A stretch of DNA of 64,000 nt from a virus: positions 1-64,000 of the IMG/VR virus record IMGVR_UViG_3300025015_000021. One strand, 5' to 3'. Within the stretch, counting starts at the first letter, position 1. The number at the start of each line of letters is the position of its first letter. The notes under the pieces are model-generated. The model was not told where the DNA came from, ran no database searches, and saw nothing but the letters and a program-made list of their open reading frames with translations. Positions 877 through 52,489 of the stretch are shown piece after piece. A program made the translations under genes and the position numbers.

Positions 877-1851
877 TTATCTTGGATCCTCCACGAAGAA
901 ACCTTCCTGTTTAAGTTTTCTTTTATTCCCAAAAGGCTTATCTGGTTCATCTCTAGGTGGGAATATCGGTGAATTAGCTCCATCTGGACTAAATTCAAAT
1001 AATGCATCACAATTTTGGAAAGAAGGTTTAGTATAGGGAACAATTTCTGCTGTAGTATTAGATCTTTTCTTACTAGCCATCCATTCGTGCCATACGAAGG
1101 AACGCATGGTAGCTGAAGCCCGCCCTCCCGCTAAATAAATTCTATGGCAGAGTTGATAATCTTCCGCTCCTGCGGGACCAAACCTTTCATCATATAACCC
1201 CACATTTTCCCAGAAATCTCTCTTGCCCACCACAAACCAGCCCGCAAATCCTTCAATATGTCCTTGGCGGTGGGCAAGTAACATATCGTAGCCTTTCTTG
1301 GTTTGAGCTATTTCCAAAGTAATAGGGCTACCATCTGGAGCTTTAGGGTATATATTATTGCCAATTTGTATTCCCCATGGTGGGCACGAATTTCCAGGTA
1401 TCCAATGACCATCATCAGCTAAACCATAACCAAAACCAGGTTCAATTGGCGAAGCTGGATTAACAGCCTTCATTTCGGGAAAAGCATCGAACTGGTCTAA
1501 GATTCCCTGCCACCAACGATCTGAAATCATCAAAATATCATCATTGCAAGCAGCTACATATTTAGAACCCCAGTACAATCCGTGAATAATTCCTTCATTC
1601 ATACTCTTTGCAAATCCCATGTTTTTCCTTTTAGGATTTCTAATAATCAAGTCGGCATAATCATGTACAAGTCCATAGACTCCATCTTTAGTTTGATCTA
1701 CTACAATTACCCTGAAATTAACAGGAGTATATTTATATAAAGATTCCAAAGCTGGCCTAATAAAATTAGTTAAAACTGGATTAAACACGAATGTTACTTC
1801 TATATTACTATTAGTCAACCTCCTTGCCCTGAGCGTAGTCGAAGGGTTCAT
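877..1851 (-). CDS. glycosyltransferase family 2
   Basis: VIVVDQ, NMGFAKSMNEGI, CNDD, GLYDERFG..AED motifs; start at 1851 gives an ATGA overlap with the upstream ORF. Confidence 0.85.
   Translation of the reverse strand: MNPSTTLRARRLTNSNIEVTFVFNPVLTNFIRPALESLYKYTPVNFRVIVVDQTKDGVYGLVHDYADLIIRNPKRKNMGFAKSMNEGIIHGLYWGSKYVAACNDDILMISDRWWQGILDQFDAFPEMKAVNPASPIEPGFGYGLADDGHWIPGNSCPPWGIQIGNNIYPKAPDGSPITLEIAQTKKGYDMLLAHRQGHIEGFAGWFVVGKRDFWENVGLYDERFGPAGAEDYQLCHRIYLAGGRASATMRSFVWHEWMASKKRSNTTAEIVPYTKPSFQNCDALFEFSPDGANSPIFPPRDEPDKPFGNKRKLKQEGFFVEDPR
1823..1846. repeat. 24-nt hairpin mini-element, family A (inside CDS, encodes PSTTLRAR)
   Basis: CTTG-CCC-TGAGCGTAGTCGAA-GGG. Confidence 0.85.
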
Positions 1852-2138
1852 CTTACCCACCTCCATAAATTATTCCACAATTTTTCCAAAAATGATGTTT
1901 TTGGAAATGGGTACATAGGATATTCAGGAATAAATGATGTCGTAGTTGTACTTCCCCATTTAGATTTTATCCTGCTAACACTTTTAATTGGATTGGTCGT
2001 TCCCAATTTAGATTTAGTCCTTACAGGTTTAATACCTTTATATATTTTAGGTAATTCTTTTTCAAAATCTTTTAATGCTTTAGATTTAATCCTAATAATT
2101 CTTTTCTTATTTTTTATATTTTCTTTTTTATTCTTCAT
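1848..2138 (-). CDS. hypothetical basic protein
   Basis: 96 aa ORF coupled to its neighbours. Confidence 0.5.
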   Translation of the reverse strand: MKNKKENIKNKKRIIRIKSKALKDFEKELPKIYKGIKPVRTKSKLGTTNPIKSVSRIKSKWGSTTTTSFIPEYPMYPFPKTSFLEKLWNNLWRWVR

Positions 2139-2145
2139 ATTACTA

Positions 2146-3288
2146 TCACCACCCCGATTTTATCACAGAGCAAATTTCAGCAACTTGCTCTTCTGTTACA
2201 TAATGATGCATTGGTAATACTAAATATTTATGTTCTAAAGCATCCATATTGGGACAGTTATAAACTCTTCCACCATAAACTTTATATCTATCAGCCCGAT
2301 AATGAACTGGATTTGACTCAATGTTATTTTCCAAAAGTTTTTTCTTCAAAGCCTCTCTGCTTTCAGTTTCAACTGTACAAAGCCAATAACTAGACTCAAT
2401 ATTATCTGGCACATCTTTATTGATTAATCTAATTCCTGGTATTCCTTCCAGTCCCTTTTTATATGCCTCGAATCTTTTCTTTGCCCCTTCAATTAAGTCA
2501 TCAAGCTCATTAAGCCCTTCAATTCCCATTGCGGCCTCAATACTTGTCATTTGATACTTGAAACCTACTTCCCAAATATCCTGCTTCCATCTGTCTTCAA
2601 ACTTAGCTTTTCTGTCAATTCCAAACCATCTAATTCTCTTAGCTTGTTCTTCCTGCATCGGATCTTCTATTGTCAGCATCCCACCATCTCCAGTAGTTAT
2701 GGTTTTCACCGCCTGAAAACTGAAAGCAGTATATTGGCAAATCTCACCAACACGTTTCCCTTTGTAAGTTGCCCCGATTGCCTGAGCCGCATCTTCAATA
2801 ATCGGTACATTCCATTTCTTAGCGATTGGCAAAAGTCTATCATAATTACAAGGCATACCCGCATAATCCACGGCAATAATTGCCTTAATTCTTTCTCCCT
2901 GCTGTTTAAATAGCTCCTCTACATGATTAGGATCAATATTCATTGTATCTTTTTCAATATCAGCAAAAACCATCTTTGCCCCCTGATATAAGATTCCCGA
3001 ATACGAGGCTGAACAGGTAAAAACAGATCCAATAACCTCTTCCCCCTCTTTTATCCCAGCTAGAATATATGCCAGATGAAGTGCCGATGTGCCAGAATTA
3101 ACTGCAATTGCCCGATGTTTACCAGAAATGCGGTTCTCAAATTTTTTCTCAAATTCTTCTACAAGAGGTCCTTCACCTATCCATCTATTATCCATTTGTA
3201 GTCTTGCCCGATTTTTAGCAGATTCAGATAAATAAGGATGAAACAAAACTATTTTATCTTGTCCTGAGCTTGTCGAAGGATTATCCAT
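2146..3288 (-). CDS. DegT/DnrJ/EryC1/StrS family sugar aminotransferase
   Basis: VNSGTSALHLA, IIEDAAQA, FSFQAVKTITTGDGG (PLP lysine). Confidence 0.95.
   Translation of the reverse strand: MDNPSTSSGQDKIVLFHPYLSESAKNRARLQMDNRWIGEGPLVEEFEKKFENRISGKHRAIAVNSGTSALHLAYILAGIKEGEEVIGSVFTCSASYSGILYQGAKMVFADIEKDTMNIDPNHVEELFKQQGERIKAIIAVDYAGMPCNYDRLLPIAKKWNVPIIEDAAQAIGATYKGKRVGEICQYTAFSFQAVKTITTGDGGMLTIEDPMQEEQAKRIRWFGIDRKAKFEDRWKQDIWEVGFKYQMTSIEAAMGIEGLNELDDLIEGAKKRFEAYKKGLEGIPGIRLINKDVPDNIESSYWLCTVETESREALKKKLLENNIESNPVHYRADRYKVYGGRVYNCPNMDALEHKYLVLPMHHYVTEEQVAEICSVIKSGW
3258..3280. repeat. hairpin mini-element, family A (inside CDS, PSTSSGQ)
   Basis: CTTG-TCC-TGAGCTTGTCGAA-GGA. Confidence 0.9.
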
Positions 3289-4120
3289 AAATTATCTCCT
3301 TAAATTCTGTTTCACAGAGTATCGTCTGGTATTCTGCTTTGGGGAAATTGGCCTTGTTTTCTGGGGTTACTATAAATTGTTCTCCAGAAGGTACAAATCC
3401 TTCTTCAAAGTCTCCGTATGGCACTCCGCTTTTAACAAAAGAAAACATATTGTTCCAATTTGTTATTATAACACCCATAATAGAAAAAAGCAAGGTAGTA
3501 ACCACATCTTCCTTATCCATTTGCCCCTCATTTATCTGGATTACCAAAGGATAAATGCTTTGCCAGGCGTAAGTTTGAGATGCCATAAAAAACGCTCCTA
3601 GAAAAGGTGCTCCTATGGTTGGATTTTCATCTTGGGAAAATTCCAAATTATCATAAACAGTCTGAAAACAAGGATAATGAAATAATATCCTATCTAATAC
3701 TTTCTTGCTTATTCCTCCCGATATATTAAAAGCCCCGATTATTGTCGGCTTACTTGAAGAATTAAAAATATCAACCAAAGTTTCCGCCCAGTCGTTTCTT
3801 ATAAAAAAGGTATCATTATGCATCCGTACGCATAGCCTCGTCTTTATGTCCATAAATCCCGCTTCCTGTTTATAAGTGCTTTGGGCATACTGTATCGCTT
3901 TTCCTTTAATATTGTGTTTTAAGAGAAGATTGTAAGTTTCCATATCCCCCTTGTCATAAACCACCAAAGTATTTTTAACCACTTCAGGCGGTGTCATCTT
4001 GATATATTGGGGAATAAACCACTTAATTCTCTTCACATATTGAGAAGCTTGAGGTATTACCACAGACAAATCCCCCAGAGTGTAGGGTAAAAATTGTCCA
4101 ACTGGTATTATTTTATTCAT
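3281..4120 (-). CDS. putative GT-A fold glycosyltransferase
   Basis: LSVVIP start, MHNDTFF DxD-like motif, late ED motif. Confidence 0.55.
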   Translation of the reverse strand: MNKIIPVGQFLPYTLGDLSVVIPQASQYVKRIKWFIPQYIKMTPPEVVKNTLVVYDKGDMETYNLLLKHNIKGKAIQYAQSTYKQEAGFMDIKTRLCVRMHNDTFFIRNDWAETLVDIFNSSSKPTIIGAFNISGGISKKVLDRILFHYPCFQTVYDNLEFSQDENPTIGAPFLGAFFMASQTYAWQSIYPLVIQINEGQMDKEDVVTTLLFSIMGVIITNWNNMFSFVKSGVPYGDFEEGFVPSGEQFIVTPENKANFPKAEYQTILCETEFKEIIYG

Positions 4121-51817: not shown

Positions 51818-52063
51818 ATGACAACTAAAATACAACCATTAAAAAATTATAGTTTTATCTGTCCTAATTGTAAGGAAAAACAAATAAGTGTAACACGTTG
51901 GGAAACAGTATCTTTGCCATTTTTGTTTGATTTAAAAACAAAAGAAAGTATACAAAATGATCCCGAAGGATCAGACTTTGAAAACTATACTTGTCCTTCA
52001 TGCTTTGAAGATATAGAAGATAAAAAATTGATACTTCAATTAGAAGAACATCTATTCAGTTAA
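51818..52063 (+). CDS. zinc-ribbon protein
   Basis: AGGAGGTGA RBS; CPNC..CPSC. Confidence 0.65.
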   Translation: MTTKIQPLKNYSFICPNCKEKQISVTRWETVSLPFLFDLKTKESIQNDPEGSDFENYTCPSCFEDIEDKKLILQLEEHLFS

Positions 52064-52100
52064 TTATTAAATAAATGTTTGGAGAGGAGGTGAATAAATT

Positions 52101-52385
52101 ATGAAATGTAAAAATTGTGCTAAAAAAGTAATTAAAATGAAGGAAAATCCAGAGGCAATTGCAATAGGAATTTGTACGGATTGCTTTTACAAGCCGTTTC
52201 CTATTACAAGTATTGCAAGGGCGGACTTGCTCGAAGGTTTTTCAAAAAAGCAGATAGCAAGCCTTGAGGATGGTGATATGACAGAAATAGCTTCAGATAT
52301 GGCTGAGGCTTATTGTGATAATGGGTTTTGGATTGATTTACCTATTATTACGGATAAAGTGCTAAAGGATTATGCTAAGGCATAA
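52101..52385 (+). CDS. hypothetical protein
   Basis: AGGAGGTGA RBS; CxxC..CxxC. Confidence 0.65.
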   Translation: MKCKNCAKKVIKMKENPEAIAIGICTDCFYKPFPITSIARADLLEGFSKKQIASLEDGDMTEIASDMAEAYCDNGFWIDLPIITDKVLKDYAKA

Positions 52386-52466
52386 TCAATCGGGCGGGCT
52401 ATGTTAGATTTAATCAATTAGGAAACTAAAAGATTAAAGACATGGGATCAATTTCCATCCCGTCCA

Positions 52467-52489
52467 CACTTCGACAAACTCAGTGTAAA
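52467..52489. repeat. family A mini-element
   Basis: CAC-TTCGACAAACTCA-GTG-TAAA just before ATG 52492. Confidence 0.8.

Follow-up and report, generated by a model that had tools for sequence, protein, structure and literature searches.

Bacteria abound in short palindromic repeats, most families of which are without a known mobiliser. Here we describe one such family, a hairpin element of 23-24 nt dispersed through the tailed phage of IMG/VR virus record IMGVR_UViG_3300025015_000021; the stretch analysed, hereafter the window, is the first 64 kb of this 93.9-kb record (completeness estimate 82%). Among the closest described systems, the families SDR1-8 of small dispersed repeats, found in Nostoc and related cyanobacteria, are reportedly 21-27 nt long and form a hairpin with compensatory changes; they are also said to include self-nested copies, to have precise insertion points and to lack a known transposase. 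Insertion sequences of the IS200/IS605 type, such as IS608, encode TnpA, differ at their two ends and insert directly 3' of a target tetranucleotide. IS91 targets CTTG/GTTC, stem-loops are found at gene-cassette borders in T4-type phages, and the classic Rickettsia palindromic element RPE-1 is about 100-150 nt long and restricted to Rickettsia. In the passages of two papers that cite them, SDRs are reported as confined to the Nostocaceae (PMC5861425, PMC4390886). Rickettsia palindromic elements are in-frame, tolerated palindromic repeats in protein-coding genes (PMC3733652). The CGTC/TGTC-tagged repetitive extragenic palindromic (REP) elements have a CGTC, TGTC or CCTC head, an 8-9-bp stem starting with AT, a 4-5-nt loop and a 3-nt CCA tail; their copy number is patchy, they form head-to-head dimers in alpha-proteobacteria, single intragenic units add 8 residues, and the CGTC class is without a dedicated transposase (PMC3733652). 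GTAG-tagged REP and REPIN elements go together with a RAYT (Bertels & Rainey 2011, PMC3116915; RAYT definition from Di Nocera, De Gregorio & Rocco 2013, PMC3733652).

The element of the window is, in our judgement, probably of the same general kind: a non-autonomous mini insertion element of 23-24 nt, similar to REP elements and to the small dispersed repeats of cyanobacteria. On the strand that carries TGAG, each copy opens with a 4-nt tag (CTTG in nine copies, TTTA in seven, plus variants), followed by a 3-nt arm, TGAG, a loop of 5-6 nt, CGAA and the complementary arm, after which there is usually a T; seven copies have one extra base after CGAA, usually T. The motif is not explained by base composition. 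The window contains ten matches to TGAG-N5-CGAA and eight to TGAG-N6-CGAA, with ~0.95 expected for each, and none of 100 shuffles reaches these counts. When the core is required to have three complementary flanking pairs there are 18 matches in the window, compared with a mean of 0.25 in 200 dinucleotide shuffles, and a YTTR tag as a further requirement leaves 14 against a mean of 0.01. Among the 18 core matches that were not selected for pairing, 17 have clearly complementary triplets (chance ~10%); the eighteenth, at 31323-31343 on the minus strand, looks like a chance match.

The covarying stem reported in the preliminary description holds up under direct measurement. Across an alignment of 15 equally long copies, every one of the 45 stem cells is paired (60% in shuffles), and double-sided changes are seen in 18 stem cells and at all three pairs, which is reached by none of 500 shuffles; when the partner column is slid along, stem pairing falls to 24-53%. 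We infer that the TGAG/CGAA clamp is made up of a U-A pair, two sheared G·A pairs and a G-C pair. Since the first loop base can pair with base 4 or 5 in 19 of 21 copies, varying as C-G, T-A or T·G, the covariation reaches the apex, where this pair would cap a loop of two or three bases. A covariance model recovers the same copies. All 20 copies listed in the preliminary description do have the motif at their coordinates, four of them (37848, 38921, 41191 and 52467) on the minus strand. The copy given at 41213 is real, this position being the start of its stem, with the tag ATAA at 41209; those at 4127 and 25912 also stand, the former now seen to be split by an unrelated 19-nt hairpin and the latter to bear an additional 3' half. 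Beyond that list there are further copies at 34556 and 59513 in the window, the latter added by the covariance model together with three outside it (66418, 69531 and 73983). Model matches of 19-25 bits at 87600-88000, beyond the window, lie in a Ser/Thr-rich coding repeat of a structural gene and were rejected as copies.

Presence or absence of the segment relative to orthologues, on which the idea of a mobile element depends, was borne out by related phages and other homologues. The cleanest apparent presence/absence case is the copy at 31086: exactly 8 residues are missing from 14 of 14 homologues (53-84% identity) of the 513-residue glycosyltransferase, and excising the 24 nt restores colinearity with them. 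At 1823, 8 residues are added just after the start, and the orthologue in the related phage G002 begins 4 residues before the conserved block, without the segment. Similarly, the copy at 24130 adds 8 residues after the start codon, and the orthologue in a second relative, G001, begins M-A-R-V-V-I. The 25912 copy lies in a tail without counterpart in the orthologues, which end at about residue 259-262; for the gene with the 4127 copy, the G002 orthologue is alignable only to residue 186 of 201; and the peptide encoded at 16061 is missing from all homologues (54-85% identity). Five of the six reading frames are open through the element. As judged from these alignments, copies are shown to have joined genes of this phage lineage, to all appearances as discrete units, after its split from the nearest sequenced relatives.

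The copies also insert into each other. Three copies (9223, 42393 and 43004) each hold in their loop a second, complete copy of 24 nt that has a tag of its own and another stem, and in all three cases the junction is the bond after the fourth loop base. In an unrelated bacterium with a G+C content of 41% (235 kb examined), 7 of 49 copies are nested, all at the same bond as in the phage. Because nested copies recur at one bond in the phage and in an unrelated bacterium, new copies preferentially target the loop of one already present, and invariably this single bond. The insertion bond is thus defined by copies that nest inside their own loop, and its constancy points to a process that reads the hairpin. 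The inner copy at 43019-43042 has TGAA in place of CGAA. An inverted target duplication, in which the stem would be copied from the target, had been prompted by one relative, in which the empty site corresponding to 31086 has TACT and CAAG; it was rejected, as the stems of the nested inner copies are absent from the outer loops.

The element is not specific to the phage, a point missed in the preliminary description: its 17-23-nt core is common to many bacterial phyla. An exact 23-mer has no match in IMG/VR. A 17-mer of the core matches more than 117 viral contigs there, with G+C contents of 34-73%, and a 23-mer with six two-fold positions matches at least 120 genome contigs, where ~1 would be expected. 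Cyanobacteria, many Patescibacteria lineages, sphingomonads, Bacteroidota, Acidobacteria, Planctomycetes and Chloroflexi are among the sources of these genome contigs, which by their record titles represent well over a dozen phyla or phylum-level groups. One complete Sphingopyxis genome holds 190-200 copies, depending on the pattern, a 1.8-Mb genome (G010) 388, a Chryseobacterium genome 20 and two Patescibacteria genomes 6-7; reversed-pattern controls in these genomes give 0-3 matches. Across the Sphingomonadaceae copy number ranges from 0 to 190 and is zero in 44 of 121 genomes. The surroundings of the core are lineage-specific, with long inverted doublets in Sphingopyxis, a TGTCA head in Chryseobacterium and the TTTA tag in Patescibacteria, the copies of which have the same tag and loop variants as the phage. 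In Sphingopyxis sp. PET50 (L285-L289) composite palindromes of ~110 nt, the stems of which are extended and of the CCGTTCG type, contain the core in each of their arms, and for this reason a form resembling REPINs or miniature inverted-repeat transposable elements (MITEs) also exists in this host. Inverted pairs in Sphingopyxis are ~55 nt apart; the phage has one inverted pair only, the abutting copies at 41191-41232.

Relatives of several phage proteins are encoded on contigs that were binned as Microgenomates or Daviesbacteria, so a Patescibacteria bacterium is a possible host, as far as such protein relationships can tell. The density of copies is ~230 per Mb in the phage and at most ~10 per Mb in the putative Patescibacteria hosts, and related phages have almost none: those recognised by their terminase (60-68% identity) carry 0-2 copies each versus ~22 in this phage. 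One relative, L142, has a copy with the loop of 38921 and a TGG/CCA stem. In terminase scans of viral and metagenome sequences the best identity was at most 75%; compared with cultured phage records, the window has no near match, and the element itself gives only chance-level matches.

Set against the described families, the element resembles SDRs in size, covarying hairpin, self-nesting, precise insertion and the absence of a known transposase, a comparison made by description only, and differs in that SDRs are reported as confined to the Nostocaceae whereas the present core occurs in many phyla and in phages. With the CGTC/TGTC-tagged REPs it shares a tagged short palindrome, patchy copy number, head-to-head dimers in alpha-proteobacteria, 8-residue intragenic units and the lack of a linked transposase, and the TGTCA head of the Chryseobacterium copies adds to this likeness; here, however, the stem is of 3 bp of Watson-Crick pairs with a fixed clamp, the head is CTTG or TTTA, and there is no CCA tail. 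The CGTC-1 peptides are of the VIPAKAGI type, different in sequence, and none of the peptides encoded by the present core is in the tables of that paper (PMC3733652). A tetranucleotide with a hairpin, high copy number and, in Sphingopyxis, inverted doublets recall the GTAG-tagged REP/REPIN elements, but there is no GT[AG]G tag and no association with a RAYT, and the core is cross-phylum rather than species-specific. Rickettsia palindromic elements are alike in their tolerated in-frame insertion and unlike in the greater length of RPE-1 and its restriction to Rickettsia. Finally, IS200/IS605 elements also have a hairpin next to a tetranucleotide, read on single-stranded DNA, whereas the present element has a single hairpin, no common tetranucleotide in its 5' flank, inner copies that keep their tag, and no TnpA. 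Among the Rfam covariance models the lone match was a chance-level CRISPR-DR hit (E = 3) away from every copy, and a literature search by motif and encoded peptide returned no paper quoting this core, only unrelated primers. The kind of element is already known; the family, its density in a phage and the fixed bond of self-insertion appear undescribed.

The proposal of a very small, non-autonomous hairpin element is supported by these results. As to the remark in the preliminary description that no transposase is encoded in the window, Y1_Tnp, GIY-YIG, TnpB and reverse transcriptase were all without a match in the 94-kb record. The sole recombinase and nuclease genes found in the window, for a 719-aa large serine recombinase (55762-57921) and an HNH homing-endonuclease-like protein (44881-45549), are not linked to copies of the element. 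The further suggestion of the preliminary description, a REP-type element moved in trans on single-stranded DNA by a Y1 HUH transposase (RAYT or the TnpA of IS200/IS605), we now regard as improbable. The architecture of a tetranucleotide plus a short imperfect hairpin and the REPIN-like spacing of the Sphingopyxis inverted pairs agree with it, and two copy-carrying Patescibacteria genomes do encode Y1_Tnp, but no copies flank those genes, and Y1_Tnp (PF01797) is without a match in the phage and in the two richest genomes tested, Sphingopyxis and G010. A Y1_Tnp match is present in 20 of the 121 Sphingomonadaceae genomes, with no significant association with copy number (Mann-Whitney p = 0.16), and such a match is missing from 10 of the 12 genomes that hold 100 copies or more; as the genomes are drafts and phylogeny is not corrected for, the survey makes an HUH enzyme less likely without disproving it. 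The tag is CTTG or TTTA, not GTAG, and a nested inner copy that retains its own tag misfits insertion directly 3' of a target tetranucleotide. Rolling-circle insertion of the IS91 type beside CTTG was rejected, there being no common tetranucleotide in the 5' flank and IS91-type Y2 genes (PF04986) being rare (4 of 121 Sphingomonadaceae genomes). The machinery behind the proposed mini insertion element would rather read the folded hairpin, probably in single-stranded DNA, and the host, possibly a Patescibacteria bacterium, would supply this machinery in trans; presumably it is neither a Y1 nor a Y2 HUH transposase. A more far-reaching version, in which the element is among the smallest mobile DNA units known, is nearly identical in distant bacterial phyla and their phages, is cut or joined at the loop bond by a hairpin-reading enzyme other than Y1 or Y2, and has phages as both targets and vehicles between hosts, is speculative and in our view doubtful.

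Might the hairpin instead be a functional one, selected at gene starts as an mRNA leader, stabiliser or translation signal rather than spreading as a selfish insertion? We consider this unlikely, although the placement of the copies speaks for it: ~13 of 22 are no more than 10 nt away from a start codon, with the others in tails, enzyme loops and small variable genes, an element followed by ATG within 1-4 nt recurs in two related phages, and at 9223 and 43965 the copies begin 7-8 nt after good TGTTATAAT -10 boxes and so make up the whole leader, the remaining promoters of this phage leaving almost no leader. Moreover, four sense-oriented intergenic copies end in the A of an ATG, with GGAG- or GAGG-like tracts 7-9 nt upstream. 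Such a role does not explain the in-frame copies deep in two enzymes, the nested copies, those in C-terminal tails or the recurrence of one sequence in unrelated settings in different phyla; the copies are not predicted to fold better than shuffled sequences, and with the TGAG strand antisense to the gene in 17 of 22 copies, the mRNA would in these bear the strand with pyrimidine mismatches. In a tightly packed phage genome tolerated intergenic insertions necessarily come to lie near start codons, and where spacers are only a few bases long, purifying selection would leave just this placement. The copies persist where they do little harm, in intergenic gaps of a few bases, first codons, C-terminal tails and surface loops of enzymes. 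A few may since have been co-opted: the four sense-oriented copies may now serve as ribosome-binding sites, each giving a purine-rich tract and the A of the start codon.

An alternative without any transposition in the phage is that the copies were brought in as part of host DNA or lie where recombined gene cassettes meet. A 3.3-kb glycosylation gene block (34578-37848) that is missing in G001 is bracketed here by the sense-oriented copies at 34556 and 37848; the gene at 38370-38921, which adjoins 38948 here but in three related phages is flanked by the orthologues of 19315 and 18334, has a copy (38921-38944) at its new upstream joint; and the variable region of small genes at 41-44 kb holds a cluster of eight copies. 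Yet G002 has the glycosylation block without flanking copies, a 4.9-kb insertion of sugar-nucleotide genes (10584-15450) relative to both related phages bears the element at neither joint, and at least four copies are inside syntenic, clearly orthologous genes of which the related phages lack the copies, and we deem this origin quite unlikely. That the motif is a product of chance or composition, or a by-product of Ser/Thr-rich coding as the look-alikes near 87.6 kb might suggest, is scarcely credible given the comparison with shuffled sequence, the covarying stems and the fact that most copies are intergenic or clear insertions.

Several observations nevertheless weigh against the mini insertion element that we favour. 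No base-exact pair of filled and empty sites was found, protein identity to the closest relatives reaching 85% at most. The insert at 31086 is retained in both of two strain-level glycosyltransferase variants, which leaves recent mobility undemonstrated. For the 16061 copy, homologues differ in length by a number of residues other than exactly 8, as the loop varies in length among them. Nearest-neighbour folding yields energies from -1 to -6 kcal/mol, and most z-scores relative to shuffles fall in the range -1.2 to +0.5; it detects the short stem alone, and the claim of structure is hence based on covariation and not on energy, the stable G·A-clamped fold being our own proposal rather than a computed one. 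With 8 stem types and 14 loop variants, the phage's copies are of a diversity that acquisition long ago or on repeated occasions would explain as readily as transposition inside the phage would. Searches of the phage and of carrier genomes for candidate enzymes found no mobiliser. As a separate point, MITEs have terminal inverted repeats and a target-site duplication; judged from the filled sites, no copy has direct repeats at its flanks.

A unit this small, with a clear anatomy and tolerated in-frame insertions into enzymes, makes two questions testable: how repeats spread without a linked transposase, and whether a phage ferries them between hosts. Its copies also create annotation artefacts, namely false N-terminal extensions, 8-residue inserts and spurious small open reading frames (ORFs).

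The window has a G+C content of 34.5% and encodes a large terminase, a portal protein, a serine integrase, replication proteins and numerous sugar-modifying enzymes; the coding strand is minus until ~47 kb and plus across 48-63 kb. The copies within it are listed in Table 1.

Table 1. Copies of the hairpin element in the window (strand is that of the TGAG motif)
Position	Strand	Type	Anatomy	Location
1823-1846	+	copy	stem CCC/GGG, 6-nt loop	residues 3-10 of GT2 glycosyltransferase, ORF 877-1853
3258-3280	+	copy	stem TCC/GGA	in frame directly past start codon of DegT-type aminotransferase
4127-4170	+	split copy	19-nt hairpin at ~4136-4154	C-terminal tail of GNAT acetyltransferase
9223-9271	+	nested pair	outer 9223-9237 + 9262-9271; 24-nt inner 9238-9261, after CTTG in loop	between TGTTATAAT -10 box (9279-9287) and ATG at 9218
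16061-16083	+	copy	encodes PSAGSGQ	variable loop of glycosyltransferase, ORF 15450-16487
24130-24152	+	copy		residues 4-11 of UDP-glucose dehydrogenase-like protein, before GxGxxG motif
25912-25944	+	copy	copy 25912-25935 + extra 3' half 25936-25944	C-terminal tail of head-morphogenesis-like protein
31086-31109	+	copy	24 nt, stem TAC/GTA	in frame within 513-aa glycosyltransferase
34556-34578	-	weak copy	sense; 9.5 bits; GAGGG 7 nt upstream of ATG	last bases are ATG of ORF 33737-34558
37848-37871	-	copy	sense; loop contains GGAG	between stop and start codons; last base is A of ATG
38921-38944	-	copy	sense	upstream junction of gene 38370-38921
41191-41213	-	weak copy	sense; 9.7 bits	ends in ATG of ORF 40859-41191; abuts 41209 copy head to head
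41209-41232	+	copy	stem CCC/GGG, bulged C, tag ATAA	directly after stop codon of ORF 41233-41499
42393-42441	+	nested pair	24-nt inner 42408-42431, after CTTG in outer loop	inside ORF 42319-42813
42767-42790	+	copy	TTTA tag, stem TCC/GGA	near start of ORF 42319-42813
43004-43052	+	nested pair	inner 43019-43042	3 nt upstream of ATG at 43000
43965-43988	+	copy		fills gap from TTGCTT-N17-TGTTATAAT promoter-like site (43997-44005) to ATG, which is one base past element
52467-52489	-	copy	stem CAC/GTG	2 nt upstream of ATG of plus-strand ORF 52492-52866
59513-59536	+	copy	28 bits; tag TTAA; loop as in 31086, stem TCC/GGA	

Some individual copies and neighbouring features deserve mention. The loop variant of the 37848 copy is also found in one Patescibacteria genome, and on a Staskawiczbacteria contig (L299) a copy lies immediately past the apparent 3' end of a tRNA gene. 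The G+C-rich 19-nt hairpin at 4136-4154 separates the G from the A within TGAG and is unique in the genome; without it, the 4127 copy is a regular one with CGAA mutated to CAAA, and the hairpin may, judging from its form, be a member of a second mini-element family. In the 513-aa glycosyltransferase, the C-terminal tail encoded at 30653-30750 (SFAKASEDK-like) is wholly unlike that of a variant with 89% identity and looks like the product of another short repeat. Apart from the element, TTGACA-like -35 boxes together with extended TGTTATAAT -10 boxes are found at 9279-9287, 43997-44005, 52875-52883, 54127-54135 and 59732-59740, among others; several of these promoters have their -10 box only ~14 nt ahead of the ATG, and for this reason many genes of the phage may be leaderless or nearly so.

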